DNA of 64,000 nucleotides from a virus: the IMG/VR virus record IMGVR_UViG_3300027920_000641, one strand, 5' to 3'. Within the stretch, counting starts at the first letter, position 1; every line of letters begins with the position of its first letter. The position numbers and the translations under genes were made by a program. Below are positions 2,921 through 23,577 of this stretch, piece after piece. The notes below the pieces were generated by a model. That model was given only the letters and a program-made list of their open reading frames with translations. It was not told the DNA's origin and made no database searches.

Positions 2921-2984
2921 AACGCGAAGAAACGGCGTTTTATTGTTTCGATGCTACTTTCCACGTTCTCTCCTAGTCCACTTT

Positions 2985-3302: not shown

Positions 3303-3335
3303 TTTTCCTTTTGTTAACTTTTTATAAACCTCATG

Positions 3336-3782: not shown

Positions 3783-3783
3783 G

Positions 3784-4614: not shown

Positions 4615-4634
4615 AATTCTCCTTTATTATTTTA

Positions 4635-5048
4635 CTACTTTACTACTTCTCTGAAAATAAAAGTTCCCTTAGTATCCTGTTTTTGTCTGCGCCTAGTCCT
4701 AACGGCCGATGAGGTTGCTTCTAAGTTCGGGAAGATTTCCTGCAATTTGCGCCTAGCCCTAGCTACAGTTTCATAACTTGGCAGATCTCCAGAGATTAGA
4801 TCTTCAAGTAAAATCGCTTCTTTATCTCCGAACCAAACCCTCTCTGTCCAGTTGTGCTCGTTCACAATCTTGCCCATTTGTCTGAAGACTTCAGTGAGCA
4901 ATAGTTTGTCTGAGTTCCTGGTTTCAGGCTTATTGATGAGTATATTCTTGATTAAGTCGTATGTTTTCATTTTGCTCCATAAAAATACATGGTAAAGAGT
5001 ATGTAAATTACTGTTGTAATAATAAAAATAAAGACCAAGTTTATCCAT
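4635..5048 (-). CDS. hypothetical protein
   Basis: ORF track 137 aa. Confidence 0.5.
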   Translation of the reverse strand: MDKLGLYFYYYNSNLHTLYHVFLWSKMKTYDLIKNILINKPETRNSDKLLLTEVFRQMGKIVNEHNWTERVWFGDKEAILLEDLISGDLPSYETVARARRKLQEIFPNLEATSSAVRTRRRQKQDTKGTFIFREVVK

Positions 5049-5058
5049 CGATTAAATG

Positions 5059-5265
5059 TCATGCTGTTTTTTCCTTTCTGTCTTCTCGATATTTATCCCA
5101 TCGTTTTTTTGCACTGATCTTCCCCATATTGGAAAAATACTCTCGACCCTTTTCCTTGTTTTTAGCCCCACCAGCACGTCCTAGGGAAGCCATGTATTCC
5201 GATATGATGGGATTTACTGTTGATTTTGTCATATTACTTTCTAAGACTGATCCCCCAAGGGACAC
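5059..5265 (-). CDS. small KGG-motif stress-protein-like peptide
   Basis: GRAGGAKNKEKGREYFSNMGKISAKKRW resembles the KGG-repeat general stress proteins (YciG-like). Confidence 0.4.
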   Translation of the reverse strand: MSLGGSVLESNMTKSTVNPIISEYMASLGRAGGAKNKEKGREYFSNMGKISAKKRWDKYREDRKEKTA

Positions 5266-5458
5266 TCTTATTTCTTTTTTTAACGGCGCTAGCTAACTTT
5301 AGCGCCTTTAGTACGATCTCAGTTCTTTTCCCATTATTTAAGTAGAGATCTTCTACGAAAGCAATGGTTAGTGCGTGGATTAAATCACTATCTTCCCCAA
5401 TAGTTTTTACCTTGATTGTATTGGTATTTTTCTCAATGGAGAAAACAGTTTTGCTCAT
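5234..5458 (-). CDS. hypothetical protein
   Basis: ORF track 74 aa. Confidence 0.45.
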   Translation of the reverse strand: MSKTVFSIEKNTNTIKVKTIGEDSDLIHALTIAFVEDLYLNNGKRTEIVLKALKLASAVKKRNKSVPWGISLRK

Positions 5459-5580
5459 ATAATTTCCTTAATTACCATTTCTAACATTGAGTAAGTGAAA
5501 AACAATGCAAATGCTATTACTAGAATTGTTGCTGATCCAAAGAACAGGATCAAATAGGTTGCTGGGAATATATTCTTCAT
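5455..5580 (-). CDS. small hydrophobic membrane peptide (41 aa)
   Basis: Self-translated MKNIFPATYLILFFGSATILVIAFALFF...; stop overlaps downstream ATG (ATGA); sigma70-like promoter just upstream; coordinates approximate. Confidence 0.3.
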   Translation of the reverse strand: MKNIFPATYLILFFGSATILVIAFALFFTYSMLEMVIKEII

Positions 5581-5618
5581 ATTTTTCTTTCTAATAGTAT
5601 CATATTATGCCATGTTTG

Positions 5619-5795
5619 TCAATGACTCTTTATACACAGGGGGTTCTCTTTATCTTGGTTTATCAACATAGTTTTCATTTTGCAGACAGCAAGTATATCT
5701 CCAGATGGCTCATAAAGTCTCCCAGACAAAAAGAATAGACTGGACGAAGCTATCATGCATAACAAAATTACAATTTTCAAAGTTGTTTTTTTCAT
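5619..5795 (-). CDS. small secreted peptide (58 aa) with signal-peptide-like N-terminus
   Basis: Self-translated MKKTTLKIVILLCMIASSSLFF...; GAGGGG RBS; coordinates approximate. Confidence 0.3.
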   Translation of the reverse strand: MKKTTLKIVILLCMIASSSLFFLSGRLYEPSGDILAVCKMKTMLINQDKENPLCIKSH

Positions 5796-5870
5796 AAGTT
5801 CCCCTCTAGCTCGGGGGATCTTCTCGCTAGTTTTACAACCACCGAGAGATCTCCCCTTTATTGACTAGCA

Positions 5871-6116
5871 TTATTTGCCAGACTCCAATACTGCTTCTAG
5901 TACCACGGCGTACTTATTGCCGTCTTTGTCGAAGATTGTGTCTACCAAGAATGCTTCCTCTACCTTGCACCCAGTTTCTTCGATATTGACTGCTCGATAA
6001 ATCTTGCAAACCTCTCTGTTTGCCGACTCAACTGCTTCCTCTGGGCTATTCGCCGCGACTGAAACCGAGTCCTCTTCCGCTGTTTCTGTTACATACCTTA
6101 CGTCGTAAAATTGCAT
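5871..6116 (-). CDS. hypothetical protein
   Basis: ORF track 81 aa. Confidence 0.5.
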   Translation of the reverse strand: MQFYDVRYVTETAEEDSVSVAANSPEEAVESANREVCKIYRAVNIEETGCKVEEAFLVDTIFDKDGNKYAVVLEAVLESGK

Positions 6117-6316
6117 ATATTTTCTTTCTATTTTTACTAATTACTACTTGACTTTTTTTCTCTAGTCATATAGAGTTATTTTAATCTTTTTTTACATAGC
6201 TTTGTTCCTTAAAATAAGCGCTTAGTAAGAGGGTTCTGGCTATAAGTTTAAACCTGTTATGACTTAGCTCAGTTTCGGTTACCTGCCAAGGAGTGAGTAA
6301 CTGAGTACCAGACTTT

Positions 6317-6775
6317 TTATCTTTCAAACTCTAAGCCTTCTTTTGCAATCACACTAATCCCTCTAGTTTTTGCCCATTTCAGCGCTCCTTGCCACTCTGT
6401 GTCAGTGAAGTCTCCATCGCTAGACACCCTAATTGATGGTATGAAGTTCCCCAAAACTAAGTACACCTTCATCACATATTCGTCATATGGTTTAAACGCA
6501 GTTTTACAACAAGTAAAGTACTCATTGTCTACCGTAAAATACCAACCGCTGTCTTTTGGGTTTGATGAGTACCAGCAGGTTTCGTGTCCATCTTCTCCCT
6601 TACCATTAAACCTGATTTCCTCTTTTGTTACCAGCGGTTTACTTGGGTCGTTATATTCGAGTTGCAGTATTTCCTTTTCCCAACCCTCCTCAATTACTTC
6701 CTTGAGTATCTCCAGTGCTTTATCTGGAATATCCTCTGGTTTCTTAGTGTTGTATAGATAGTGTGTGTAGCCCAT
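6317..6775 (-). CDS. hypothetical protein
   Basis: ORF track 152 aa. Confidence 0.55.
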   Translation of the reverse strand: MGYTHYLYNTKKPEDIPDKALEILKEVIEEGWEKEILQLEYNDPSKPLVTKEEIRFNGKGEDGHETCWYSSNPKDSGWYFTVDNEYFTCCKTAFKPYDEYVMKVYLVLGNFIPSIRVSSDGDFTDTEWQGALKWAKTRGISVIAKEGLEFER

Positions 6776-6784
6776 ATATTCTCC

Positions 6785-7087
6785 TTATTTAATTATTGTT
6801 TTGATACCGACCTCTGTCCAGTGCATGTCCCGCTCTATTCCTAGCCCAAACCGCCCGCGGTACGATTGCAATTCTTCTAGTGCGAATGATCCCCACTCAT
6901 CGTTATGATCTTTGAAGATAGATACATATCCAAAAAAGATTTGATCTTTTGGGTCATATTCGGTTGCATACCAGTCTCCAGCCCCAGTGGGGTTGAAAAA
7001 GTGAGCCACCACAATGGGGTTCTCTTTTCCTTCTTGATTACCGATCTTAGCAAATCTTTCTTCCAAGCCTTTTGTCATTAGTTTCAT
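6785..7087 (-). CDS. hypothetical protein
   Basis: ORF track 100 aa. Confidence 0.5.
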   Translation of the reverse strand: MKLMTKGLEERFAKIGNQEGKENPIVVAHFFNPTGAGDWYATEYDPKDQIFFGYVSIFKDHNDEWGSFALEELQSYRGRFGLGIERDMHWTEVGIKTIIK

Positions 7088-7380
7088 AAGACTCCTATCT
7101 TTTTTAATAGCCCTTGCTCCACAAAAGCTATGTGCCTACTTGGTACTTCTTTGTCAAATATCCTCTTGAAAGCAGATGTTTTAATCACTGCAATTGACCC
7201 AGTATTTTCTTCGATTAATAACACCCCCTTAGTCAAGTACTGTTCCCTACACTCATCGCGTGGTTCGGGTGTAACGGTGTGCATTTCGAAGGTTGGTTTT
7301 AATCTTCGATCCATGAGTAGCGTGCCAGTATCTTTTCTGCAAATCGGGCAAACCGCTAGTGTTACATAAGATTTCTCCAT
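7084..7380 (-). CDS. hypothetical protein
   Basis: ORF track 98 aa; GGGGGGAAGT-ATG RBS; promoter TTGACA-16-TATAGT upstream. Confidence 0.5.
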   Translation of the reverse strand: MEKSYVTLAVCPICRKDTGTLLMDRRLKPTFEMHTVTPEPRDECREQYLTKGVLLIEENTGSIAVIKTSAFKRIFDKEVPSRHIAFVEQGLLKKIGVL

Positions 7381-7400
7381 ACTTCCCCCCTTATTACTAT

Positions 7401-7428
7401 ACTATACTATATTCTCCACAATTGTCAA
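7401..7428 (-). promoter_or_regulatory. sigma70-type promoter (TTGACA-16-TATAGT)
   Basis: Reverse complement reads TTGACAattgtggagaatatagTATAGT; about 14-nt leader to the ATG at 7380. Confidence 0.5.
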
Positions 7429-7453
7429 TATATCTTTCTATATCAAACTATTC

Positions 7454-7624
7454 CTACAACAAATTGATGATGCTGTATTCCTCATTAATGTATTCGATAT
7501 TTGCAACATCTTCTGGGTGTATCTCTGCAAACTTATTTTTTGCATCTTCCAGATCGATTGCTTCTATGACTGCGAGTTCAAAGTCATGTTTATCGGTTTC
7601 CTTAACTCCAAAATAGTAGTTCAT
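7454..7624 (-). CDS. hypothetical small protein (56 aa)
   Basis: Self-translated MNYYFGVKETDKHDFELAV...; GGGGG RBS 5 nt before ATG; ATGA overlap with upstream gene. Confidence 0.4.
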   Translation of the reverse strand: MNYYFGVKETDKHDFELAVIEAIDLEDAKNKFAEIHPEDVANIEYINEEYSIINLL

Positions 7625-7788
7625 AGAACCCCCTTTGCTTCCTCAATTATTTTCATTACTATTGCCTGAGCAACTCCCTGCAAATCACTGGTGGTGTACT
7701 CATCTCGTTTATAAACTAAGTCGAGTATTTCATCTGTGTACTTCAATTCGATCATTACTTTTTTCAGTGCTTTTTCTTCTATTGTCAT
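7621..7788 (-). CDS. hypothetical small protein (55 aa)
   Basis: Self-translated MTIEEKALKKVMIELKY...; GGGGGGAATT-ATG motif. Confidence 0.4.
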   Translation of the reverse strand: MTIEEKALKKVMIELKYTDEILDLVYKRDEYTTSDLQGVAQAIVMKIIEEAKGVL

Positions 7789-7812
7789 AATTCCCCCCTT
7801 GTACTAACTTCT

Positions 7813-7841
7813 ATTATAGCACACTGAGTGTTATATGTCAA
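7813..7841 (-). promoter_or_regulatory. consensus sigma70 promoter (TTGACA-17-TATAAT)
   Basis: Reverse complement TTGACAtataacactcagtgtgcTATAAT; member of a repeated roughly 30-nt promoter family. Confidence 0.65.
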
Positions 7842-7844
7842 TAG

Positions 7845-8054
7845 TTATTTTCCCCCCATCTCGGTCGCTTCTACCAAATGGTTATAAGTACGCTTTTTTT
7901 CAATAGTAAACTCAAACCCGTTTATCATCTGCATAATTGTTGACACTGGTAGGCGGTACTCGTTGCCCTCATCATCAAAAACCCTCAATTGATTATTTGC
8001 GTACATTGTATTCAGTGTTTCAATAACAACTATTTTCTGACCCGCTATTTTCAT
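7845..8054 (-). CDS. hypothetical protein
   Basis: ORF track 69 aa. Confidence 0.45.
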   Translation of the reverse strand: MKIAGQKIVVIETLNTMYANNQLRVFDDEGNEYRLPVSTIMQMINGFEFTIEKKRTYNHLVEATEMGGK

Positions 8055-8056
8055 AA

Positions 8057-8215
8057 TTACTCCTCTTTATACTCCTCATACTCCTCTACTTCTTTTTTGA
8101 ATAGTTCTGGCTTATATGTGCCATTTGCTATATCAACCAGTGTTTCAATCGCATCAACCTCTGGGCTACTTGTACCCAACCATTTTTCTACCATTTCAAA
8201 AGTAACTTTGGTCAT
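8057..8215 (-). CDS. hypothetical small acidic protein (52 aa)
   Basis: Self-translated MTKVTFEMVEKWLG...; GGGGGAATT-ATG motif. Confidence 0.4.
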   Translation of the reverse strand: MTKVTFEMVEKWLGTSSPEVDAIETLVDIANGTYKPELFKKEVEEYEEYKEE

Positions 8216-8224
8216 AATTCCCCC

Positions 8225-8383
8225 TTATTCACTATCTTTATACGCTTCTGGCGAGGTAACTACTTCATGTTCAGTACTATCAACCTCCCCACTCATAACT
8301 AACTCGATTGCTCCTGCTTCATCTTTGGCTTCTACTCGTTCTGCTCTCATCTGGCAATCATAAACAACTGTAAAAAATGGCAT
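8225..8383 (-). CDS. hypothetical small protein (52 aa)
   Basis: Self-translated MPFFTVVYDCQMRAERVEAKDEAG...; AAAGGAAATT-ATG. Confidence 0.35.
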   Translation of the reverse strand: MPFFTVVYDCQMRAERVEAKDEAGAIELVMSGEVDSTEHEVVTSPEAYKDSE

Positions 8384-8397
8384 AATTTCCTTTCTAA

Positions 8398-8556
8398 TTA
8401 ACTATTGGCATTTAATATGTTCAACTCTTTTCTTATTTTTTCAACTAACTCATCTACCTCGTCTCCGTCTAGTGGTTCATTATCATTAAATGATAAGACT
8501 AATTTGTGTATTTTTTCTGCCGATGTCTTTGCGATCCAACTCTTGATATTCTTCAT
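8398..8556 (-). CDS. hypothetical small protein (52 aa)
   Basis: Self-translated MKNIKSWIAKTSAEK...; GGAGGAGGT-ATG RBS. Confidence 0.4.
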   Translation of the reverse strand: MKNIKSWIAKTSAEKIHKLVLSFNDNEPLDGDEVDELVEKIRKELNILNANS

Positions 8557-8702
8557 ACCTCCTCCGTATCGTATATTTCTACCGCGTACAGTCCGTTCTT
8601 GATTGCGAAGTCAACTCTCTTTAGTGCTTCTGCTTCATTTTCCGCTTCTGGGTGTTCATCAAGCGTGATATCGATAAAGTATCTGATCATTTTTTTCTTC
8701 AT
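8553..8702 (-). CDS. hypothetical small protein (49 aa)
   Basis: Self-translated MKKKMIRYFIDITLDEHPEAE...; G6 RBS; ATGA overlap. Confidence 0.35.
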   Translation of the reverse strand: MKKKMIRYFIDITLDEHPEAENEAEALKRVDFAIKNGLYAVEIYDTEEV

Positions 8703-8728
8703 ATTTTCTGCCCCCCTTTATATCTTCT

Positions 8729-8757
8729 ATTATAACATACTGTCTGTTATATGTCAA
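8729..8757 (-). promoter_or_regulatory. consensus sigma70 promoter (TTGACA-17-TATAAT)
   Basis: Reverse complement TTGACAtataacagacagtatgtTATAAT. Confidence 0.65.
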
Positions 8758-8766
8758 GCATCATTT

Positions 8767-8946
8767 CTAAGTAACTTTTTTTGTTTTTTCCCTATCAATT
8801 AATAATTCCGAGTCAACTAGCTTGTAGACTTGCTCCATAATTCCATCGACTGTTTGATCTGCTAACTCGTGCTGTAAAGTCTTAATAAGTCTTGACCTGA
8901 TCACGATGTTTCTAGACAATAGTTTCTGCATTTCTGGCGTGTTCAT
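8767..8946 (-). CDS. hypothetical small protein (59 aa)
   Basis: Internal start MNTPEM of track ORF 8767..9018; GGGAGATT-ATG; ATGA overlap with upstream gene stop. Confidence 0.4.
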   Translation of the reverse strand: MNTPEMQKLLSRNIVIRSRLIKTLQHELADQTVDGIMEQVYKLVDSELLIDREKTKKVT

Positions 8947-9263
8947 AATCTCCCATCTCCCAAGTCCTCCCAGATCTCCGCTAGTAAATCCATATCTGGG
9001 TACTCGGTACACTTGCAAACTACTTTGCCCGTCTGTTGTCTATATCCCCCGTATGGGTATCTGTTCTCTTGCCAGAATGGTACAATCTCGTGGTATTTCC
9101 CCGTATTTAGTACAATCAACCCTCCCCAATCTCCCGCACTACTCATGGTGTCCATGTACTCGACTCTTACAACCGCTTTATACTTTCCAAATATGTCCTT
9201 AGCATCGTACCAACCAAGCCCTCCCTGTTCCCATTTTCTGTCTAGTAGGTGTTTAATTGTCAT
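8943..9263 (-). CDS. hypothetical protein
   Basis: ORF track 106 aa. Confidence 0.5.
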   Translation of the reverse strand: MTIKHLLDRKWEQGGLGWYDAKDIFGKYKAVVRVEYMDTMSSAGDWGGLIVLNTGKYHEIVPFWQENRYPYGGYRQQTGKVVCKCTEYPDMDLLAEIWEDLGDGRL

Positions 9264-9337
9264 AGTCCTCCCGTGCTACTTGATACTATTCGTTCCAATT
9301 TCCAATAACTTTATTTACAGCTCCCATATATTCCCCC

Positions 9338-9514
9338 TTATGCTACTAAGCTTTTTACAATTTCAATTGCGTCTGCATCTTGTTCTAACCATTGTTGGAG
9401 TAGCAATAGCATTTCAAACTTGGCTAGCTTCTTCACTTGTGCTTGTGCATCGCTCCAGTTCCCGTTGACATAGTTATCTATGATTGCTTGCCATTTTTCA
9501 TATCTTGTTGGCAT
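9338..9514 (-). CDS. hypothetical small protein (58 aa)
   Basis: Internal ATG (MPTRYEKW) of the track ORF, preceded by GGGGGAATT-ATG. Confidence 0.45.
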   Translation of the reverse strand: MPTRYEKWQAIIDNYVNGNWSDAQAQVKKLAKFEMLLLLQQWLEQDADAIEIVKSLVA

Positions 9515-9524
9515 AATTCCCCCT

Positions 9525-9701
9525 TTATATTTCAAAATACGTATATCCTAAAAGACCATTTTCTACTTTTTTAAAGTGTTTTTTTAACTCGACAATATAT
9601 TCTTGACTTAATCCTCCTGTACAGATACTTATATTATTTCCACCCGCTCTTTTAATTGAGTTCTTAACATACCTGACTGTTTTTTTAATTCCTAGCTTCA
9701 T
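9525..9701 (-). CDS. hypothetical small basic protein (58 aa)
   Basis: Self-translated MKLGIKKTVRYVKNSIKRAGG...; G8 run upstream of ATG; coordinates approximate. Confidence 0.3.
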   Translation of the reverse strand: MKLGIKKTVRYVKNSIKRAGGNNISICTGGLSQEYIVELKKHFKKVENGLLGYTYFEI

Positions 9702-9713
9702 GCCCCCCCCTTA

Positions 9714-9926
9714 TTACACAATACAATTGTCTGCTACTTTGGTCTTGTTGATTGCTCCCCCTTTGTTTAACCAACCATCTGAGATTAGAGCCTGAGCAGT
9801 TCTCCCGTAACTACCTTGGAGTTCCCAAGCACGTCCACTTTTTACTAAGAATGAAAAAAGCTTGAGTGTCTGGAGGTCTGATAGTTCCCCCGCTTCATAT
9901 GCTATTATTTGATCTAGTAGTGTCAT
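9714..9926 (-). CDS. hypothetical protein (70 aa)
   Basis: Internal start MTLLDQ of the track ORF, preceded by GGGGGGCAAGTT-ATG; the longer form would overlap the upstream gene. Confidence 0.45.
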   Translation of the reverse strand: MTLLDQIIAYEAGELSDLQTLKLFSFLVKSGRAWELQGSYGRTAQALISDGWLNKGGAINKTKVADNCIV

Positions 9927-9951
9927 AACTTGCCCCCCTTTATTACTTATT

Positions 9952-9980
9952 ATTATAACATACCGTGTGCTATATGTCAA
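9952..9980 (-). promoter_or_regulatory. consensus sigma70 promoter (TTGACA-17-TATAAT)
   Basis: Reverse complement TTGACAtatagcacacggtatgtTATAAT. Confidence 0.65.
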
Positions 9981-9987
9981 GTCCAAT

Positions 9988-10638
9988 TTAGCCCGCAAAC
10001 CTGTATTGGAGTGGTACACCTGATTTGATGTATTTCTTAGCTTGTTCCAGATGCTTTTTGTGTTTCTCCTCGATGTCATAATCGACCACCGACTGTGCTT
10101 CTTTTAGGGTATCGTCATACCCGTAATACCCCCAACACGAGTCGACACTTTTCCCCTCTGGATCATTTACCATGTAACCATATACATCGCCACTGATATA
10201 TTGATCGAACGTCTTGACCTCGTTCTCGGCTATTCTCTTAGCATCTGCAATCAGTTTCTTTGTTACCCTCTTGGTGTTCCAATTCTTGCGTATGTCCTCT
10301 TTGGTAACTACAATCCAACCCACTTGCCCACTATCCCATCGATCCGAAAACGGGTAACATCTCATCGTGATCCCGCTATGTTCATAGACAAAAAGTGGTA
10401 AAATAACTGCAATCTCCCCAACCGTCTCAGTGATCCAACCCACGAATGAGTCGTAATCGTCGACATACATGGTGTCCCCGTGTTTATCGCTGTAATAACT
10501 CTCTGGTATGATCGTATCGCCAAGTGTCCAGTTTCTTGACCTGTAATACATTGTTGCCAAGTTATCCCAGTCTCTCGGCGTCATATCGCTAGTATCTTGT
10601 TTAATCTCTATGGTATAACCTCTGTATTCTTCTTGCAT
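9988..10638 (-). CDS. hypothetical protein
   Basis: ORF track 216 aa; GGGGGGAATT-ATG. Confidence 0.55.
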   Translation of the reverse strand: MQEEYRGYTIEIKQDTSDMTPRDWDNLATMYYRSRNWTLGDTIIPESYYSDKHGDTMYVDDYDSFVGWITETVGEIAVILPLFVYEHSGITMRCYPFSDRWDSGQVGWIVVTKEDIRKNWNTKRVTKKLIADAKRIAENEVKTFDQYISGDVYGYMVNDPEGKSVDSCWGYYGYDDTLKEAQSVVDYDIEEKHKKHLEQAKKYIKSGVPLQYRFAG

Positions 10639-10647
10639 AATTCCCCC

Positions 10648-10998
10648 CTATTTAATTTTTACTTGTGAAGACTCAATATACTCAATTTCTTTGATTGCAT
10701 CTTGTAAAGCGTCCTCTTTGTTTGCCCTAGCTATATTTAGTGTGTTTTGCCACAAAAAACTCCCCTTACTATCCGTGCATCTAACTATTGCTTGATACAC
10801 TGGTTTACCTATTCCAATTGCTCTGGTGTGTGGTGTTAGCATGTCCCCCCCCTGCTTGGTGCAGTACTCTACCGCATCAACTATGTTACTAAAATACTTT
10901 GGTATTACTAAATCCAGCCCGTACACGGCGTAAAACTTTTCTGTTCCCTCTACCCCCATGAACAGCTTATAATCTTTGATGAAGTCAATTAGTATCAT
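10648..10998 (-). CDS. hypothetical protein
   Basis: ORF track 116 aa; preceded by the conserved leader element ggtagcaagtag..agggggacatc-ATG. Confidence 0.5.
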   Translation of the reverse strand: MILIDFIKDYKLFMGVEGTEKFYAVYGLDLVIPKYFSNIVDAVEYCTKQGGDMLTPHTRAIGIGKPVYQAIVRCTDSKGSFLWQNTLNIARANKEDALQDAIKEIEYIESSQVKIK

Positions 10999-11014
10999 GA
11001 TGTCCCCCTCTTTA

Positions 11015-11066
11015 CTACTTGCTACCGTGAGCGGGTCATTACAACCCGCCCCCGCTAGTAACTAGC
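11015..11066 (-). promoter_or_regulatory. conserved double-hairpin leader element, copy 1
   Basis: The palindrome gctagtaactagc plus the hairpin gcgggt-N7-acccgc plus a conserved ctacttgctacc leader; a near-identical copy lies at 12709-12758. Confidence 0.45.
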
Positions 11067-11613
11067 CTATTTGGTAGTGTCTAACCGTGAACGGGTTATA
11101 TCCCTCAACCTTGGTACTATTCAGCTTTTCAACATCTAGATTGACTTGATCGAACGTGTTGACGTCTGGATTTTTGATCCCCGCAACTGCTAGCTTAATT
11201 GTCTCATCAAGTATCGGCAAAACTTCATCTGGTTTCGCCCCGCAATAGGTGCAAATTGCCGTTGCTTCAATTCTCATGAATTGATATAACCTACTGTATA
11301 AATACTTGCGTTGCTCGGTTGTGAATAATTCCCAGTTATCGGATATCCAACTACACAACCCGCCCAAGTCCTCGACCTTGTAAAAACTCCTGACTTTAAA
11401 CTTGCAGAACCCATCGGTTTGATCGAGTAACATAATGTCGTGATATGTTCCCGCGTGTGGTTTATTTAATTTCCCCGTTTTTGGATTGATCGATTGAGTA
11501 ACCCCGCGAAAACCCTTGTTGGCTTTAAACTCGACCCAGAAAAACATACTAGTTCGTAATCGCCCGTATGGGTAGTCAGTTACCTCTACTTTTTTTGTAC
11601 TATGCTGTAGCAT
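11062..11613 (-). CDS. hypothetical protein
   Basis: ORF track 183 aa; GGGGGAAATT-ATG. Confidence 0.55.
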   Translation of the reverse strand: MLQHSTKKVEVTDYPYGRLRTSMFFWVEFKANKGFRGVTQSINPKTGKLNKPHAGTYHDIMLLDQTDGFCKFKVRSFYKVEDLGGLCSWISDNWELFTTEQRKYLYSRLYQFMRIEATAICTYCGAKPDEVLPILDETIKLAVAGIKNPDVNTFDQVNLDVEKLNSTKVEGYNPFTVRHYQIG

Positions 11614-11660
11614 AATTTCCCCCTTGCTATTTTATTACTATTCTTGACTAATTATCTCTA

Positions 11661-11689
11661 ATTCTAGCATACCGAGTGTTATAAGTCAA
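11661..11689 (-). promoter_or_regulatory. sigma70-type promoter (TTGACT-17-TAGAAT)
   Basis: Reverse complement TTGACTtataacactcggtatgcTAGAAT, the same family as 7813/8729/9952. Confidence 0.5.
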
Positions 11690-11708
11690 TAGGTATTTCT
11701 ATATCAAA

Positions 11709-12191
11709 CTATCTCATTTCAAAAATGATTTCTACATCACACAACCCACCGCAACCCAAATTGTCCCGCGTTTTTCTTGACAAATCCGCCACCCTACCAT
11801 GGCGTGCAAATCCGCCTGTATCAGTTACTATCGCCGTCGTGGTTGCCCCCGTTTCCGTGTTTTTGATAGTAACCTGCTTGTTGAGTAGCTTGTACTTGCG
11901 TACCGTCTCGGGTACAAGTGCAATTGTAGCCTTGTTGTCATCTAGTTTTTCCCCGTTCGCCATGATCAACCCATCATTGCAACCCAAACAGCCACCAGTC
12001 CAGTAGTAGGACGCTTGACCCCTGACAGTCAATGGTGCAATGGTAGGCGTCGGCGTAGGTGTAGCCGTTGGCGTTGGCGTAACCTCTACGGTCTCAGCTT
12101 GTGCCACTTGTGCCATTGGTTCGCGTTCCCGTGCAACCTGCAGACCACCAAGGCACAACCCCACCCCAACCAGTACAATTTCTATTTTCAT
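11709..12191 (-). CDS. secreted 3D-domain (MltA/YabE/Rpf-type) protein with TPTP linker
   Basis: Signal peptide MKIEIVLVGVGLCLGGLQVA, (TP)n linker, C-terminal KATIALVPETV...TDTGGFARHGRVADLS matching the 3D-domain pattern. Confidence 0.5.
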   Translation of the reverse strand: MKIEIVLVGVGLCLGGLQVAREREPMAQVAQAETVEVTPTPTATPTPTPTIAPLTVRGQASYYWTGGCLGCNDGLIMANGEKLDDNKATIALVPETVRKYKLLNKQVTIKNTETGATTTAIVTDTGGFARHGRVADLSRKTRDNLGCGGLCDVEIIFEMR

Positions 12192-12265
12192 ACATTCTTT
12201 GCTACTTGCTCGAGTAGTTTTGTGGCTTTTTTAACTTGCATAAGTTCCCCCCTTTATACTTGATA

Positions 12266-12466
12266 CTAGATTGATACATTTAACCCAAACCGCCCCGCCG
12301 TTACTATCTGGACGCCGTCATACCCGTTATCGCTTGCGTACTGTTTCCAGTCTGCTAGCGTCCCGACAGGTGCAAACCCGCCCGCCCCCGCCAATTGATA
12401 CTCTCGATCAACTTCTGGCGTACTATCTTTGCTATAGCTTGCCCGCTTGATGTATAGCGTGGTCAT
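12266..12466 (-). CDS. hypothetical protein (66 aa)
   Basis: Internal start MTTLYIK of the track ORF, preceded by GGGGGAATT-ATG. Confidence 0.4.
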   Translation of the reverse strand: MTTLYIKRASYSKDSTPEVDREYQLAGAGGFAPVGTLADWKQYASDNGYDGVQIVTAGRFGLNVSI

Positions 12467-12498
12467 AATTCCCCCTTGATACTTTATACTATAGGTCG

Positions 12499-12693
12499 TT
12501 ACTTGCCTACTAGATCCCAATTATGAGTTACACCCAGAGATTGCCAATATGCGATACTCTCACACTCGTATATCTGTTTCTTGAGCGTGCATATATCGCG
12601 GTTATTCGCCAACCACGTATTACGTTGATTGATTGGATCAAACCCGCCAAGCTTGCATAGTTCTGCAACCGTTAGCCGTGTATAGTGTCTCAT
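12499..12693 (-). CDS. hypothetical protein
   Basis: ORF track 64 aa; preceded by the conserved leader element copy 2. Confidence 0.45.
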   Translation of the reverse strand: MRHYTRLTVAELCKLGGFDPINQRNTWLANNRDICTLKKQIYECESIAYWQSLGVTHNWDLVGK

Positions 12694-12708
12694 GATGTCC
12701 CCCTTCTG

Positions 12709-12758
12709 CTACTTGCTACCATAAGCGGGTACGGATACCCGCCTAGCTAGTAACTAGC
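12709..12758 (-). promoter_or_regulatory. conserved double-hairpin leader element, copy 2
   Basis: ctacttgctacc + gcgggta-cgga-tacccgc hairpin + gctagtaactagc palindrome. Confidence 0.45.
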
Positions 12759-13119
12759 GTTCTATAAAGTGCATTTTACCGTCTACTTCGAGCGTAATAG
12801 CTTCTTGTCCCCACTCTCGAGCCTTTGCAAGTGTGAAGTTCAATACATTCTCGGCGTGCTTCTCTAGATCCTCGGTGGTCATGTTAACCGTAACTTTGAT
12901 GATGTTTTCAGTTACAATATCCCCCGCGTTACTCTTGTAATATCCCAAGCTTCTCTGGCTTGAGTTCGCCCCGCCTACTAAACCCGTGAAAAATAATGAT
13001 ACCTCGGACGCTCTAGCGTTGTGCTGGTCTCTGGTTATCTTGGTTCGTACCTCTTGTGTGCTAGGCACTTGAAAAGTGATACTGTGATCTAGTGTGAACA
13101 TGTTGTCAAATACTGTCAT
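12754..13119 (-). CDS. hypothetical protein
   Basis: ORF track 121 aa. Confidence 0.5.
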   Translation of the reverse strand: MTVFDNMFTLDHSITFQVPSTQEVRTKITRDQHNARASEVSLFFTGLVGGANSSQRSLGYYKSNAGDIVTENIIKVTVNMTTEDLEKHAENVLNFTLAKAREWGQEAITLEVDGKMHFIER

Positions 13120-13129
13120 ATAGTCCTCT

Positions 13130-13321
13130 CTATTGGTTTATACTTTGATACAGTTCTATATCGATCTTCTCTAGTTCCCCGAGTACCTCTGGAGAAAAAC
13201 TGTCAATCTCTTCTCTGGCTTGATCTGGATCGAAGAAAAACTCGGTTGTCTCCTCGAGTCTCTCGACTTCAGCCCGTAGGTTTTCAGATCTGGTGTGATC
13301 TGGTCGGTTGTGTTCTGTCAT
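13130..13321 (-). CDS. hypothetical acidic protein
   Basis: Track ORF 13130..13369; likely start at the internal MTEHNRP, preceded by GGGGGGACAGC-ATG. Confidence 0.45.
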   Translation of the reverse strand: MTEHNRPDHTRSENLRAEVERLEETTEFFFDPDQAREEIDSFSPEVLGELEKIDIELYQSINQ

Positions 13322-13432
13322 GCTGTCCCCCCTCTTGTAATTATTACGTAAGCCGTTGTAGTGGCTCATTTTAGGCTTTTTACTTGTTTGATATCTTATA
13401 CTGCTAGTTTTAAATTGTAAGCCGTTCTGGTG

Positions 13433-13486
13433 CTATCTAGTAGCTATCTAGTACTTGTCTAGTGTTATCTAGTACTTTGCTAGTGG
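13433..13486. repeat. iteron-like array: 5 direct repeats YTRTCTAGTRS at 10-11-bp phasing
   Basis: ctatctagtag / ctatctagtac / ttgtctagtg / ttatctagtac / tttgctagtgg in tandem; a further ctgctagtt copy at about 13401. Confidence 0.6.
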
Positions 13487-13770
13487 CTTAGATGTACACC
13501 AGTTCCCGCCTATCTGGGTTGTCTGGGTTTTTTTGTGAATGTGCGTGTCTGCTGTCTATTATGGGGATAACAAGCAGATTGTAAACTAGATCTTACTGTA
13601 TCAAACTGTATCATTTGTAGTCAGTTTTCAATTACTTATGCTATTCAGTCGTGCAATTGATAATTATTAAGCCGTTATAGATACGCACTCGAGGTGGATT
13701 GGATCGTATAAGATATATTATGCGACGTAGTGTGCATAGTACTACATACGCGACATGGGTATATATTACT

Positions 13771-13964
13771 TGCGTGCGTGCGTGCATGCCCCTGCTACAG
13801 GGGGGAGGGGGGGTACTACCTCGAGCGTCCAGAGGAAACTATATCTATCTATATCAGAATATATCACCCCCCGCACAGGGGGAAGGGGGTAAAGCCCAAG
13901 CTTATTGTATAAGTCCTGGACGGGATATGTGTCACATCTGGATATGGGGGGGCACCCCCCCATG
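13771..13964. promoter_or_regulatory. GC-rich structured island: (TGCG)3 tract plus three C-run/G-run hairpins with flanking G-runs
   Basis: tgcgtgcgtgcgtgc; CCCCTGctaCAGGGGGgaGGGGGGG; CCCCCCgcacaGGGGGaaGGGGG; GGGGGGGcaCCCCCCC; predicted ORFs in this region are probably spurious. Confidence 0.55.
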
Positions 13965-14014
13965 GTACAAAAAGCCTAAATATTATTGAACTCAAAAAAT
14001 TTTTTGAAAAATTT

Positions 14015-15016
14015 CTACAATTTCAGGTCAGAACCATCATAGGGCCTGTTGCAGTTGCACTCGGCGCAAATGTATCTGAGGTTAGATTGAGCATGTGCTC
14101 CTCCCGCTGCAAGGGGAAGAATATGATCGAGGTGTTTTCCATCTGGGTAATGAGAGTTATCAGCCATTAGTTTTCCACAAACTGGACAGTTAATGGTGTT
14201 TTGTTTTAAATCAATTAACCATTGTGAACTAACTCTCTCTACACCATTCTTTCTCTTTAGAGCTCTTCTCTTACCCTCTTTATTTCTTGAATCAGCACTT
14301 CCCTCTGGGGAGGAATAATAACACTTCTTGCAATATCCATGCCCTTTGTGTGGATATCTTTGGCTGTGACAATTACGACAGTTTTGATAAGACTCACTCC
14401 ACCTTCTAAGCACACATTCATGGGAACAATAGTGAGTTCTTTTTGATGGACATACCAAATAATTTGTTCCGCATGTCCAACAAGTTCTGCTTTCTTTAAT
14501 TGTATTAGCAAGTTTAAATTTTTTAGCGTAAAAAAGACCAACACATCTTCTAGAACAAAACCTACCTTCACCATCGCGAGGATTCTTTTCTTTAAAAAAT
14601 TGTGTTCCGCATACTTCGCAGTGACCTATCTCTCGTTTTTTGTGACACATCTTACACAGACCATTGCCAACATGTTTTCTTTTAGTAGTTCCGCACCTAA
14701 CGCATTGAGGGTATTCCCTAGACCAGGTAAGAAGTTTTTTGTAGGTATAGGGAGAAGATGGACTTTTCCGCAAAGCATGATAGTTTTTCATTTGACAGGA
14801 ACGCGAACAATATTTCCCCGCCCCATTACGTCGCTGAGAAGGACAGTTAACATACGCGATGGGAACATACTCCTTTTTGCAAAACTGGCAGATTCTAGAA
14901 AGAACTGGCTTTATTCTACTTTTACTAGAACAACTGCGAGAACAATAGAGTCCTTTAGATGACCCTTTGGGTAGAAATAGCTCGTGACAGAATAAACACT
15001 CGGCAGGCTGGCGCAC
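14015..15016 (-). CDS. Cys-rich multi-zinc-ribbon HNH endonuclease
   Basis: At least 6 CxxC...(F/Y)CSRxC ribbons followed by the C-terminal HLDHILPLAAGGAHAQSNLRYICAECNCNR HNH motif. Confidence 0.7.
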   Translation of the reverse strand: MRQPAECLFCHELFLPKGSSKGLYCSRSCSSKSRIKPVLSRICQFCKKEYVPIAYVNCPSQRRNGAGKYCSRSCQMKNYHALRKSPSSPYTYKKLLTWSREYPQCVRCGTTKRKHVGNGLCKMCHKKREIGHCEVCGTQFFKEKNPRDGEGRFCSRRCVGLFYAKKFKLANTIKESRTCWTCGTNYLVCPSKRTHYCSHECVLRRWSESYQNCRNCHSQRYPHKGHGYCKKCYYSSPEGSADSRNKEGKRRALKRKNGVERVSSQWLIDLKQNTINCPVCGKLMADNSHYPDGKHLDHILPLAAGGAHAQSNLRYICAECNCNRPYDGSDLKL

Positions 15017-15050
15017 TTGGTCAGTATAACAGAATATTCCATGTCTATCA

Positions 15051-15079
15051 TTGACATTTGCGACATTGTCTGTTATAAT
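15051..15079 (+). promoter_or_regulatory. consensus sigma70 promoter (TTGACA-17-TATAAT)
   Basis: TTGACAtttgcgacattgtctgtTATAAT; the predicted TSS coincides with the ATG at 15087 (leaderless). Confidence 0.6.
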
Positions 15080-15086
15080 TACTGGT

Positions 15087-15524
15087 ATGATTAAAATATT
15101 TCCTCAAGTAGAACAGAAAATAGTAACTCTATATGTTAAAAAGAAGCTTTCTTGTAGAGAAATTAAGGAAGAACTTGGTTTAAACATCTCTGTTCGCCAG
15201 ATACAGAGGCGTTTGGGGAAACTAGGAGTGATTCGCAAGCCTGGAGAGGCATTTGCACTAGCTGTTGCCCAGGGAAAAGTGACTTATTACCGCAAGCCGA
15301 AGTCTTTAAATGCCCCAAAAACGGTTCTTTCTACTCTACAGCGGCACAGAGTACTTAGTAGAGATGAATTCAGGTGTCAAGACTGTGGAAATAAGGTTGA
15401 AGATGGTATTCGACTAGAAGTTGTTTTTAAAAATGGGAATATATTGGATAAGCGAGATGAGAATCTTCATTCTTTGTGTAATTTGTGTAGACTTGGTAGA
15501 CAACGGAGTGAAACTGCCTATTGA
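15087..15524 (+). CDS. HTH-domain protein with degenerate HNH-like zinc finger
   Basis: LSCREIKEELGLNISVRQIQRRL HTH; C-terminal CQDCGN...LHSLCNLCR; track ORF trimmed to the first ATG downstream of the promoter. Confidence 0.45.
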   Translation: MIKIFPQVEQKIVTLYVKKKLSCREIKEELGLNISVRQIQRRLGKLGVIRKPGEAFALAVAQGKVTYYRKPKSLNAPKTVLSTLQRHRVLSRDEFRCQDCGNKVEDGIRLEVVFKNGNILDKRDENLHSLCNLCRLGRQRSETAY

Positions 15525-15662
15525 CTTTTGGCTTTTAGCTAGTTACGCTCTGTACGACGTCGCAACGCGAGTGTTCGCGTCGCTAGTACGAGCGTAAAAG
15601 TTCGAAAAAAAGGGAAAAGCACCATATTTATCTTTAGGATTACTAAGGATTTTAACGAAAGG

Positions 15663-15851
15663 GTGAATATGATTGGGATTTTGATAACTATAGTTATCTT
15701 TTTGGTAATTTTTTATATTGCTAAGTTGATTATTGCCAGTCTCGGCTTGCCTGCGAATATTGTGCAAATTATCTACCTGGTAATGGGCCTACTAGCACTG
15801 CTCTACTTGCTAAGCCTGTTTGGTTTGTTCTCATTTCCTGGAGTAAGGTAG
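15663..15851 (+). CDS. small membrane protein (2 TM)
   Basis: ORF track 62 aa, almost entirely hydrophobic. Confidence 0.45.
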   Translation: MNMIGILITIVIFLVIFYIAKLIIASLGLPANIVQIIYLVMGLLALLYLLSLFGLFSFPGVR

Positions 15852-16231
15852 AGACTGCTGACCTTAAGAATGGTCTTGACAAATCTTCGTTACTTGAGTA
15901 ATATATAGGTGTCTTAGTTCTATTTGGTTTACAAGAAAACACTCAAACTCTGGGTGTTTTTTTGTTACTAAGCGCTTATTCTGAGTATTGACTTCATGTA
16001 GTAAAGATGATATACTGTTGTCATCAAAAGCACAGTTAATAAATTGAGTATTTACTCGTGTTCTTGTCGCAAGCCACCTTGCTAGTGGTCTATGTCAAAA
16101 CAGAGTTGCCTCGAGTGAGAACCAAAGGAGGACAAGAGTGGTGAATAATCTCACGAACTGCAGTTTGCTACCATATAGACTGATCTATCTAGTCATGGTG
16201 GCACGAGTAAGTACTTAATAAGAAAGGGAAT

Positions 16232-16658: not shown

Positions 16659-16886
16659 ATGCCAACAGATACATTTCGAAAAGCGTACACGGAGTTAACC
16701 GATTTACAGAAAGAAAACGTGGCTGTTATTAAGGAAGCCGCTGTTATCTTGGAGGAGGAATTCAACCATGCCGTTCCAACTGATGAAAGAAGTGAGCGAA
16801 GCCGCTGCATGGCCATTGCTAGAACTAATTTAGAACAAGCTATTATGTGGGCAATCAAGGGTGTTACTACTCCAAGTGAAAAATAA
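16659..16886 (+). CDS. hypothetical protein
   Basis: ORF track 75 aa; AAAGGAGCTT-ATG. Confidence 0.5.
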   Translation: MPTDTFRKAYTELTDLQKENVAVIKEAAVILEEEFNHAVPTDERSERSRCMAIARTNLEQAIMWAIKGVTTPSEK

Positions 16887-20961: not shown

Positions 20962-21180
20962 ATGGCGAGAATTATCATTTCCCTTACGGACGAACTTTTA
21001 GAAGAGCTTAACGAGTATACTCAGCGTAGATCTTATAATCGTTCAGAGTGTATTCGTCATGCTATTAGGAATCTTATTCAGGAAGGAGTAATGTATGCAG
21101 TTCCTCAAAAAAATATTTCAGAAAAAGCTAACAATGTCAGATCTTTCAATTCAGAGGGATTGGGAGTTAGTAACTCGTAG
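20962..21180 (+). CDS. ribbon-helix-helix (CopG/Arc-like) DNA-binding protein
   Basis: MARIIISLTDELLEELNEYTQRRSYNRSECIRHAIRNLIQEG is a typical RHH fold signature. Confidence 0.6.
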   Translation: MARIIISLTDELLEELNEYTQRRSYNRSECIRHAIRNLIQEGVMYAVPQKNISEKANNVRSFNSEGLGVSNS

Positions 21181-21455: not shown

Positions 21456-22004
21456 ATGGGAGAACCAGTTGTACTAGATGTAACTGATAGTCATAAGCTT
21501 GTTAAAACTGACGTGCCTACGCGCAAGGGTGGTAAGAAGCCGAAGACGATGACCATGACCTCAAAAGATGGCAAGATTATCGAGGTTGAAGTAACCGAGT
21601 TATTCATGCGCGAATATCTTAAAAATGGTGGAAACGCTACCGCCGCCATAAGGAAAATCTTGCCAGAAACTCAGGCCGCTACCGCTGCCCAGCTGGGTTC
21701 GCATTATCTTGGCCAGGCTAAAAAAAGAGGTCTTTTTAGGGTTATTATCGAAAAGAAGGGCTATCATCTTGGGAAGCTAATGGATGTGGCGCTTGAGAAA
21801 ATGGATGAGTCTAAAAGACCAGACTGGTGGGACCGCATTATGAAGCTAGGCGGATATGAGGACTTCACTCCAGCTGGGGGGAATCAGACGGCCGTTACAG
21901 TGACCGCTAATATCTTTGAGGCCCACAGAAAAATCAAATCAGACTATGTTGATGGAGAAGTAGAAGATATTGAAAATCCTGCCGATAATGAAGATAAATT
22001 ATAA
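21456..22004 (+). CDS. terS: terminase small subunit
   Basis: FMREYLKNGGNATAAIRK matches the TerS (Terminase_2) helix-turn-helix signature; immediately upstream of TerL. Confidence 0.65.
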   Translation: MGEPVVLDVTDSHKLVKTDVPTRKGGKKPKTMTMTSKDGKIIEVEVTELFMREYLKNGGNATAAIRKILPETQAATAAQLGSHYLGQAKKRGLFRVIIEKKGYHLGKLMDVALEKMDESKRPDWWDRIMKLGGYEDFTPAGGNQTAVTVTANIFEAHRKIKSDYVDGEVEDIENPADNEDKL

Positions 22005-23577
22005 GAAATTTATTTTAGAGAATTTCAAGGTTTTAGACAAAGAGACGCAGATACCAGTTCCTTTTGAGCTTAATGTTGTCCAGGAAAAGTATTATGATAT
22101 TTTGCAGGAACAGTATGGCGCAGAGATGGAGGGAGTACGAGAAATTGTGCTTAAGGCTCGTCAGGAGGGTATGTCTAGTTTTATCCTTGCCCTTTTTACT
22201 GTCGATTTTTTGCTTCGTCCATATTCAGTTTCCATCTGTATTTCTCACAGAAAAGATGCTACTGATATTCTATTCAAGAAAGTTAAATTCTACATTCATT
22301 GCTATCTAGAGAATCTTGCCAAGAAGCTTGACGTTCCAGTTGAGAAGATTGAGAAGGAGTGGTTGTTATCAGATAACAAGTCTTTAATTGAAAACGCTGA
22401 GAATCATGCTACTTTCTACATTGGTACTGCTGGAGCCAAGGTTGGTGGTCGAGGTGGATCTGCTCGGAACATACTTTTCTCAGAAACTGCTTTCTATCAG
22501 GATACAGAACTGGTGACTGCACAAGAAATCGTGGTAGGTACAGCGCAGCAGGTTCCTCAGGGCAGAGGTATGATTTTCCTAGAATCAACGGCTAATGGTG
22601 AGGGTAATTATTACCAGGCAGAGTGGGAGCGTTCTAATTTGCCAGCTAGACCAGACGGTACTAAGCATAGTATCTACTACCCAAGGTTTTTTGGCTGGGA
22701 GGATTTCTATACTGAGGAATGGGTTAACCAGAAACGAGGAGAATTTCCTACCGAAAAGCTATGGAAGCAGGAATATCCGCGTACAAGTGAGGAGGCGTTT
22801 ATTACCTCTGGTACCCCATATTTCAATAATGAAATTCTTGACGCTATGATGAAGGCTGCGCCAGATCCCGTCCTACAAGGCAAGTTTTCTCCAGATGGAT
22901 CATTAGACCTTTTGACTGATGATGAAAACCCACTGGTTCGTATTTATAGACAACCAAAGTATGGAGAGCAATTCGTCATCTTTGCCGATCCAGCTGATTC
23001 CCAGGACTTTTGTGCCGCGGTAGCTTGTTCGAAGAAGGAGTATGATTTTCCCATTGTCTTTAACGCAGTACTGGCTTCATCTCAGTTTGGTTATGAATTA
23101 TACGCAATGGCAAAATATGTGTTCAATCTTACGGGATTATGGCCAAAGCTAGCTGTCGAGAGAAACACTGGTCAGGCTACTATCTATGTTCTCAAGACGC
23201 TGAACTATCCAGATCTTTTTAGAATGGTTGACTTTGCTTCTACCGCAGGTACGTATGAAAAAGGAGAAATCGGTTGGGTTACTACTGGGCAACTGTCTGG
23301 TGGAGAACTACAGGGAACAAGAAGAAAAATGCTAGATGACTTTGCTCTGGCAATTGGCCAGAAGATGCCTCGAATTTATGATAAACAGCAAATTAAGCAA
23401 ATGAAGGGGTTCCAGATTTATAAGGGTAGAGCTCGAGCAAAGTCAAATATGAAAGATGACCTTGTTATGGCTAGTTGTGGAGCATGGCAGGTACAAATTT
23501 TAACTCCCTCTCTTGATTGGGGAGATTATGACGCGGAGGCAATGAAACAAAATCGCGAGAAATGGAGATTTAAGTAA
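21970..23577 (+). CDS. terL: terminase large subunit
   Basis: Deviant Walker A LKARQEGMSSF, acidic nuclease-domain residues (FADPADSQDF), 535 aa, between TerS and portal; alternative start 21988. Confidence 0.8.
   Translation: MKILPIMKINYKKFILENFKVLDKETQIPVPFELNVVQEKYYDILQEQYGAEMEGVREIVLKARQEGMSSFILALFTVDFLLRPYSVSICISHRKDATDILFKKVKFYIHCYLENLAKKLDVPVEKIEKEWLLSDNKSLIENAENHATFYIGTAGAKVGGRGGSARNILFSETAFYQDTELVTAQEIVVGTAQQVPQGRGMIFLESTANGEGNYYQAEWERSNLPARPDGTKHSIYYPRFFGWEDFYTEEWVNQKRGEFPTEKLWKQEYPRTSEEAFITSGTPYFNNEILDAMMKAAPDPVLQGKFSPDGSLDLLTDDENPLVRIYRQPKYGEQFVIFADPADSQDFCAAVACSKKEYDFPIVFNAVLASSQFGYELYAMAKYVFNLTGLWPKLAVERNTGQATIYVLKTLNYPDLFRMVDFASTAGTYEKGEIGWVTTGQLSGGELQGTRRKMLDDFALAIGQKMPRIYDKQQIKQMKGFQIYKGRARAKSNMKDDLVMASCGAWQVQILTPSLDWGDYDAEAMKQNREKWRFK

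Follow-up and report, generated by a model that had tools for sequence, protein, structure and literature searches.

What does a gene-free stretch of almost 700 bp do inside the early arm of a phage? The DNA examined here (the window, 64,000 nucleotides of IMG/VR virus record IMGVR_UViG_3300027920_000641) comes from an uncultured podovirus with a genome of ~100 kb, whose capsid and adaptor are of the SU10 type and whose nearest cultured-phage capsids are ~30% identical. The region in question, 13322-14014, lies between the first of the small leftward (early) genes and a gene for an HNH endonuclease. We regard it as about an even bet that this region is a transcription-control spacer in the leftward (early) arm, built from two modules: module A (13687-14014), next to the HNH gene, and module B (13322-13680), next to the early genes. 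From the motifs, their statistics, the pattern of their conservation and a promoter family, all of which are observed, we infer every activity proposed below. Early-gene control in uncultured phages is almost unknown, and the region offers a layout concrete enough to test, in which a host-type promoter family has an upstream element of its own, the repeat leader changes fast between near-identical phages, and a module of C-run/G-run hairpins is linked to the HNH gene.

Limits and layout of the region

The gene on the left starts at ATG 13321 and not at 13369, where L084, a close relative, has ATA; its 63-amino-acid (aa) product from 13321 was called both in L084 and in L081, another assembly of the same phage as the window. 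Because this gene starts at 13321, the non-coding gap spans 13322-14014 (~690 bp). A preliminary description, made from the letters alone, had reported a 650-bp non-coding hub and called it the only long gene-free region of the window, inside an AT-rich genome. The gene-free stretch is real, but its left limit moves to 13322, a second sparsely coding stretch lies at 15525-16231, and at 40.8% G+C the genome is only moderately AT-rich. The open reading frames (ORFs) predicted inside the region, dismissed at that time as artefacts, indeed have no protein family match, remain uncalled in three assemblies and are not kept in L095, a contig from a second phage. No Rfam 15 covariance model matched 13322-14014, even at E<=10, and a tRNA search found none; among GenBank phages there was no match to the region (megablast) or to the portal (tblastn).

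The gene on the right is the first of the leftward arm and separates the region from the rightward arm. Its assignment as an HNH endonuclease comes from Pfam, from the PHROG HNH families and from its translation, and the HNH motif scores above the Pfam cut-offs (PF14279, 29.7 bits against a cut-off of 27.5; PF01844, 28.9 bits against 21.4); metagenome gene callers had picked a spurious 105-aa ORF in place of the 333-aa one. Since this − strand gene intervenes, the region is internal to the leftward arm, away from the strand switch. It had been proposed as a possible master switch between early and late modules, but the arms diverge instead at a pair of back-to-back promoters (15023-15079), of which the rightward one is a perfect TTGACA-17-TATAAT with extended TG and the one reading leftward into the HNH gene is weaker. 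Both seemingly yield leaderless or near-leaderless mRNAs (15016-15090), ATG 15087 being 7 nucleotides (nt) past its -10 and the HNH GTG 15016 ~9 nt past its own.

The elements on which the argument draws are listed here from left to right, with program output from Tandem Repeats Finder given as TRF.

1-13321, − strand: small leftward genes, the leftward (early) arm
13130-13321, − strand: first early gene, 63 aa; its ATG 13321 and the Shine-Dalgarno sequence GAGGGGGG before it together span 13319-13334
13349, 13418 and 13668 (span 13349-13676), + strand: TAAGCCGTT, three times in one orientation, with no copy elsewhere in the 64 kb on either strand
13388-13416, + strand: promoter-like site that could start an antisense transcript of ~110 nt ending at the terminator
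13427-13502, no strand assigned: CTAGT array as a long imperfect hairpin of ~76 nt, closed by CTGGTG/CACCAG (CUGGUG in RNA)
13486-13534, + strand: predicted intrinsic terminator, a 15-pair stem (5 G.U) followed by T7 at 13528-13534; -13.6 kcal/mol
13533-13562, + strand: weaker promoter-like site (9/12), overlapping the -10 of the leftward promoter
13585->13558, − strand: sigma70-type promoter TTTACA-16-CATAAT (10/12), predicted start ~13551, facing the early genes
13595-13613, − strand: upstream element, reading TGATACAGTTTGATACAGT on that strand
13687-13696, no strand assigned: ACTCGAGGTG box, the left limit of the module common to L095
13722-13756, no strand assigned: imperfect hairpin GCGACGTAGT...ACTACATACGCGAC
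13771-13789, no strand assigned: alternating purine-pyrimidine tract, (TGCG)n then ATGC; TRF period 4 x4.8
13789-13813 (hairpin 13789-13803), no strand assigned: H1, CCCCTG-CTA-CAGGGG, then the doublet G6AG7
13867-13889 (hairpin 13867-13882), no strand assigned: H2, C6-GCACA-G5, then AAG5
13944-13963, no strand assigned: H3, G7-CA-C7, 54 nt past the HNH stop; -16.7 kcal/mol, the strongest local hairpin, without a U-tract
14015-15016, − strand: HNH endonuclease, 333 aa, with ~six CxxC...C zinc-ribbon modules
from 15087, + strand: rightward genes, the rightward arm, the first of them at 15087-15524

Two modules and their conservation

The region appears to combine two modules of different ancestry, of which module A would have been inherited as a unit with the HNH gene and module B seems to be lineage-specific. 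Two other sequences serve for comparison: L084, which matches the window at 98-99% identity over the early arm and whose contig ends before the HNH gene, and L095, which has the HNH gene with unrelated flanks. Among 5.8 billion proteins the HNH has a single homologue, P0002, and a profile search and back-translated scans found no other. P0002 is 54% identical and sits on contigs L095/L096, where a divergent junction, the HNH gene, a gap called as 511 bp (effectively ~600 bp) and small genes in the same direction follow one another; no gene flanking the HNH gene is homologous between the window and L095.

L095 keeps the elements of module A in the same order and at similar distances from the end of the HNH core, the runs lying at +54/+63, +126/+133/+143 and +202/+210/+223 in the window and at +62/+71, +142/+150/+160 and +220/+227/+243 in L095. 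The counterpart of H3 is a G5-UGUA-C4 hairpin at +62, and that of H2 is GCCCCTAATCCCCACGCGAGGGGTGATA; on the HNH-sense strand H2 reads C5-TT-C5, loop, G6 and TGATA, and a C-run doublet, a loop and a G-run followed by TGATA occur in both phages. H1, which on the HNH-sense strand reads C7TC6 then TGTAGCAGGGG, is kept in parts, as TACCCCCC(C)TCCCC with an alternating CG/CA tract, and as GTAGCAGG. The alternating tract itself corresponds to GCGCACGCGCGC, the hairpin at 13722-13756 to a 14-bp hairpin (TATGTCGCACAATA/TATTATGCGACATA), both of these hairpins being built on ATGTCGC, and the ACTCGAGGTG box is exact in L095, as CACCTCGAGT on the HNH-sense strand. That strand has more C than G over ~250 nt in both phages, and the HNH coding sequence more G than C. 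No stem pair is flipped between the window and L095, so it is the homopolymer runs themselves that are kept. Module A is retained between two phages without other common genes, and it matches no described RNA or DNA element.

All three C-run/G-run hairpins of the preliminary description are present, as is its alternating tract (TGCGTGCGTGCGTGC at 13771-13785), and neither its repeats nor its hairpins are random. The energies of H1-H3 are about -12 to -17 kcal/mol. H1 and H2 share the composite motif CCCCYGC(N)ACAGGGGGNAGGGGG, which occurs twice where 0 are expected, and the window holds no other cluster of C-run/G-run hairpins. No T-run stands behind H1-H3 on either strand, and without U-tracts they do not qualify as canonical intrinsic terminators. 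H1 differs in L084 by a C>T change, which leaves G.U on the + strand but C.A on the − strand; the alternating tract of L084 keeps its alternation through 3 transitions. A global RNA fold for module A was rejected, its long-range helices differing between the window and L095.

Beyond the TAG stop of the HNH gene, the frame at 13949-14017 (− strand) resembles the 32-aa C-terminal tail of the L095 protein (KKFFEF/KKFIDF and FCTMGGCP/FSTRGGVP, window/L095). It contains two in-frame TAGs, the first of which aligns with CAA (Gln) in L095, and the window HNH may be a truncated form. Stop-codon recoding was considered for these TAGs and rejected, long ORFs being intact under the standard code.

Module B contains a promoter that is 100% conserved in L084 and has an analogously placed counterpart, TTGCAA-16-TATAGT, in L095. 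It belongs to a family of three leftward promoters in which AGTTTGATAYAG (at 7449, 11710 and 13607) precedes the -35 by 9-10 nt; in front of 13585->13558 stands CAGTTTGATACAGTAAG, and in front of the promoters at 7428 and 11689, at equal distance, stands TAGTTTGATATAGAAA. The tandem that had been listed among the origin-like features, ACTGTATCA at 13595 and 13605, is there and forms the only two + strand copies in 64 kb, with one reverse-strand copy outside the region; as an origin feature it falls away, for it is the sigma70 upstream element as read from the other strand. Four perfect 12/12 sigma70 promoters with extended TG (7813-7841, 8729-8757 and 9952-9980 on the − strand, 15051-15079 on the + strand) share TTGACATATAACAnnCnGTATGyTATAATA, the three leftward ones being near-identical over ~30 nt, and from these four we conclude that the phage relies on the host sigma70 polymerase. 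Such perfect-promoter repeats may also break assemblies. We rejected TAGCAAGTA as a region-specific motif, since it is only modestly enriched and is a general trait of early-gene leaders.

The predicted start at ~13551 gives a leader of 229 nt that includes the CTAGT array. CTAGT starts at 13404, 13437, 13448, 13459, 13469 and 13480 (spacings 33, 11, 11, 10 and 11), and the last four spacings bear out the helical phasing of direct repeats noted earlier; six copies in 90 nt compare with a maximum of 4 in 200 Markov simulations, and TRF reports a period of 11 x4 or, better, a 21-nt unit x2.3. The palindromic CTAG core makes the direct repeats self-complementary as well, and the array hairpin has a fold z of ~ -3.1 in the window and in L084, despite their differing repeat number. 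Its 3' arm overlaps the 5' arm of the + strand terminator, which the five G.U pairs make strand-specific; this terminator is identical in L084 and resembles inter-gene terminators at 15956 and 24039. In L084 the segment 13480-13888 shows nine transitions in 409 nt, the background rate, and the array segment 13398-13479 shows 25 differences, including the loss of one 21-nt unit and the gain of 11 nt, which makes the array the fastest-changing DNA of the region. The leader of L095, ~150 nt long, has phased repeats of its own (AAACGGGA, spacings 21 and 33 nt) and U-tailed hairpins in the same orientation.

An inverted CTAGT pair (CTAGTAACTAG) occurs exactly twice elsewhere, each time within a 75-nt intergenic cassette that is repeated in the early arm, and this suggests CTAGT as a candidate recurring recognition half-site. 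The cassette itself (~75 nt; copies at 12685-12775 and 10990-11080, − strand) consists, in order, of a GCTAGTTACTAGC palindrome with the TAG stop of the upstream gene, a GC hairpin (~-15 kcal/mol), GGTAGCAAGTAGYA, a ribosome-binding site and ATG; the copy at 12707-12742 gives a weak Rfam 'ssNA-helicase' match of 20 bits against a gathering score of 41.5. Nearly the whole non-coding region is flanked by a perfect 12-nt inverted repeat, TTTAGGCTTTTT/AAAAAGCCTAAA, at 13370-13381 and 13969-13980, for which ~0.02-0.05 chance pairs are expected per 800 nt. An invertible segment between these repeats was discarded as an explanation, there being no recombinase, and contig breaks do not fall at the repeats.

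Wider searches gave no further carriers. Through the portal, relatives in IMG/VR have only the 21-26 kb packaging module in common with the window, and their analogous regions have no DNA similarity to it; RtcB loci, tried as relatives, proved to come from unrelated phages, and the neighbouring small genes used as anchors found nothing in IMG/VR. Motif scans of IMG/VR found neither the array nor the H1/H2 composite nor the module A pattern of two blocks, and a metagenome scan for H1/H2 and a genome scan for module A returned only chance matches in high-GC bacterial DNA.

A transcription-control spacer and its alternatives

In the spacer that we propose, module A would be the structured 3' tail of the HNH transcription unit, whose HNH-sense RNA is predicted to be C-rich and G-poor over ~250 nt. 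It may stop the HNH transcript or make it more stable, with hairpins as barriers and/or through Rho-type termination at the C-rich RNA, and would thereby insulate the next promoter, 13585->13558. In module B that host sigma70 promoter, with its phage-specific upstream element, would drive the small early genes via the 229-nt leader. Array RNA from either strand could fold into the ~76-nt hairpin, which on the + strand would compete with the intrinsic terminator; the array may therein serve as a regulatory target, be it an operator, an RNA-binding site or an RNase III-type processing hairpin, and possibly acts with a short antisense transcript.

This proposal is supported by the setting, with the HNH gene (−) on the right and the early gene start at 13321 on the left, and by L095, which shares the overall layout, the promoter and a long repeat-bearing leader. 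Several points weigh against it. The transcript ends are predictions from sequence, H1-H3 are without U-tracts, and Rho dependence is a guess; promoter 13585->13558 scores only 10/12, where the phage's best are perfect, and promoter-like and terminator-like sites are no more numerous than in shuffled sequence. Moreover, selection for pairing alone should have let some stem pairs flip between the two phages; that the runs are kept suggests a more specific role than a generic hairpin barrier would have. Comparison is limited to three sequences, one of them truncated, and for that reason there are no covariation statistics. Of the preliminary interpretation as a whole, the control region, the artefactual ORFs and the non-random elements survive, and the arm switch does not. 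A true terminator or insulator would be a modest addition to phage gene regulation.

Known systems offer partial likenesses. T7 controls its early genes with the host-polymerase promoters A1-A3 and then the R0.3 RNase III hairpin in the gene 0.3 leader. As in T7, a host sigma70 promoter in a gene-free stretch here heads an operon of small early genes, and a long imperfect leader hairpin precedes the first gene, with short phased repeats nearby; here, however, there is one moderate promoter, with the perfect ones elsewhere, and T7 has no sequence similarity to the region. The UAG/GAG-repeat leaders of TRAP and HutP likewise have repeated UAG-containing motifs in a structure overlapping a terminator stem, but the repeat period here is 10-11 nt, not 5-6 nt, the terminator is antisense to the early genes, and no candidate for the RNA-binding protein was recognised.

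The preliminary description had a replication origin or partition site among its readings, and the array invites that comparison: like lambda ori, plasmid Rep/iteron origins and R1 parC, it has short direct repeats about one or two helical turns apart beside AT-rich DNA. A phage initiator would bind the phased repeats (11 nt x5 or 21 nt x2.3) and melt the adjoining 13370-13425, which is ~75% A+T and also holds promoter-like sites and part of the leader, and the cumulative GC-skew minimum falls near the region. GC skew, however, follows gene orientation: the minimum marks the change of orientation, the skew reverses and is negative again over the − strand HNH gene, so that it gives an origin no independent support. 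The array is part of a predicted mRNA leader, its palindromic core makes it a hairpin as well, and the repeats are the least conserved part of the region, being unstable between near-identical relatives (L084 has lost one unit and gained many substitutions) and absent from L095. Searches of the window and its 10-kb flanks (~26 kb of the genome lies outside) recognised no iteron-binding initiator, no helicase loader and no further replication gene, and no ParA/ParB or ParM/ParR-type genes were found in the window or flanks, where one CopG-type ribbon-helix-helix protein (20962-21180) lies 7 kb away, beside packaging genes. Both readings thus lack their defining partners, and an iteron origin seems to us quite improbable; nothing shows the region to be a replication origin. 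A transcription-primed origin of the CSBII/ColE1 type would draw on module A, a rightward G-rich RNA forming an R-loop or hybrid G-quadruplex through the G-run doublets and priming DNA synthesis, with the CTAGT hairpin/terminator pair gating read-through. Such a mechanism is documented for mitochondrial DNA, where, at the light-strand promoter and conserved sequence block II (LSP-CSBII), the replication primer is created by a hybrid quadruplex of G-rich RNA with the non-template DNA (PMC6317783). Here GnAGn doublets lie on one strand downstream of a promoter-like site and are conserved in two phages (same-strand doublets G6AG7 and G5AAG5 in the window; G4AG6, G5CG5 and G4ATTAG4 in L095), and the runs are conserved beyond pairing. 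In form the doublets resemble the CSBII element. Both phages have weak, correctly oriented promoter-like sites after the ACTCGAGGTG box. The + strand sites considered are 13533-13562 (9/12), GTGGAT-16-TATTAT, found by eye, and GTGATA-18-CATAAT in L095, but as predictions they reach 9/12 or worse. Further, a complementary C-run flanks each G-run, so that hairpins would compete with the quadruplex, the polymerase would be bacterial and not T7-like, and the fixed distance from the HNH stop fits a role as 3' untranslated region equally. We hold such an origin to be quite unlikely, and its fuller version, in which module A is an LSP-CSBII-like transcription-primed origin gated by the CTAGT hairpin/terminator and the zinc-ribbon HNH processes or nicks the structure, to be very unlikely; were it true, the conserved GnAGn doublets would lock G-rich RNA onto DNA. 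An R-loop/G-quadruplex origin, or a working site of the HNH enzyme, would add a new type of signal for phage replication or DNA processing.

The same HNH linkage could arise if module A were a co-converted homing flank or nuclease recognition region of a mobile HNH cassette, with no regulatory role for the phage. The window and L095 share only the HNH gene and ~330 nt downstream, with non-homologous flanking genes, and the ~six zinc-ribbon modules could read repeated DNA motifs; free-standing homing cassettes of T4-like and other phages similarly place an HNH gene with DNA-binding modules between transcription units and recur where the flanking genes differ. Here, by contrast, the HNH gene keeps its place at the start of the early arm, standing first after divergent promoters in both phages, which looks like vertical inheritance with fast early-gene turnover, and with it go ~330 nt of structured non-coding DNA that is likewise conserved, whose short exact blocks, at 54% protein identity, argue for selection on the non-coding DNA; we judge a mobile cassette unlikely. 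One or more stable non-coding RNAs, either ~110 nt from the + strand (13423-13534) or a G-rich RNA of ~240 nt over H1-H3, would account for the + strand terminator, the promoter-like site at 13388-13416, fold z-scores of -2.1 to -3.6 and the U-tailed hairpins of the same orientation in the L095 leader. The lack of an Rfam match speaks against them, palindromic DNA scores well whichever strand is taken, the single informative substitutions favour opposite strands, and covariation is not assessable with two or three sequences, so that their chances appear rather slim. A genome terminus or packaging site, in which hairpins and repeats mark terminal repeats or a terminase site, perhaps with an HNH-assisted cut, is suggested by three short contigs that end inside the region, at 13747, 13774 and 13888, and by contigs of relatives that end near the analogous strand-switch region; HNH nucleases do assist terminases in some cos phages. 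Yet the window, L080 and L081 (the same phage) and L095 and L096 (the second phage) read through their copies of the region, the terminase genes lie 7 kb away in the other arm, and other recurrent contig breaks coincide with repeats near 61.6-61.9 kb. G/C homopolymers and hairpins commonly cause coverage loss and contig breaks, and with five assemblies reading through, coverage loss at G/C runs is the simplest explanation of the three ends; a terminus here is highly improbable.

Hairpin promoters for a virion RNA polymerase of the N4-like or crAss-like kind were also considered and rejected. The large virion proteins of 1540 aa and 2110 aa match lectin-like and internal-virion-protein families only (the 2110-aa protein matches internal virion protein only, with no PDB hit), and where N4-type promoters have uniform 5-7 bp stems with 3-nt loops, the loops here are of 3, 5 and 2-4 nt.

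Other features of the phage and its relatives

L009, a relative with 65% portal identity, has an analogous gene-free stretch of ~0.8-1 kb at its strand switch (1019-1850); without sequence similarity to the window, it has a 10-bp hairpin, two copies of a 29-nt direct repeat, C/G-run segments and an alternating tract, TGTGTGCGCGTG. A gene for an Acb2/Tad1-type anti-defence sponge, beside RtcB and endonuclease VII genes, is one of the first in the rightward arm of the window, in the region 16659-16886 (L080 6234-6461). The large terminase gene (21970-23577) is intact in the window and is split by inserts of ~0.1-1 kb, possibly inteins or introns, in several relatives (L002-L005, L007). Long coding tandem repeats with units of 6-108 nt (AGTCCT/AAGTCC-type) occur in the 1540-aa and 532-aa lectin-domain proteins, at 51772-53161 and 61460-61929, and several assemblies break at 61.6-61.9 kb. 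A large block of glycosyltransferase and sugar-nucleotide-modifying genes in the structural arm (34831-47534) suggests modification of virion or host-surface glycans.

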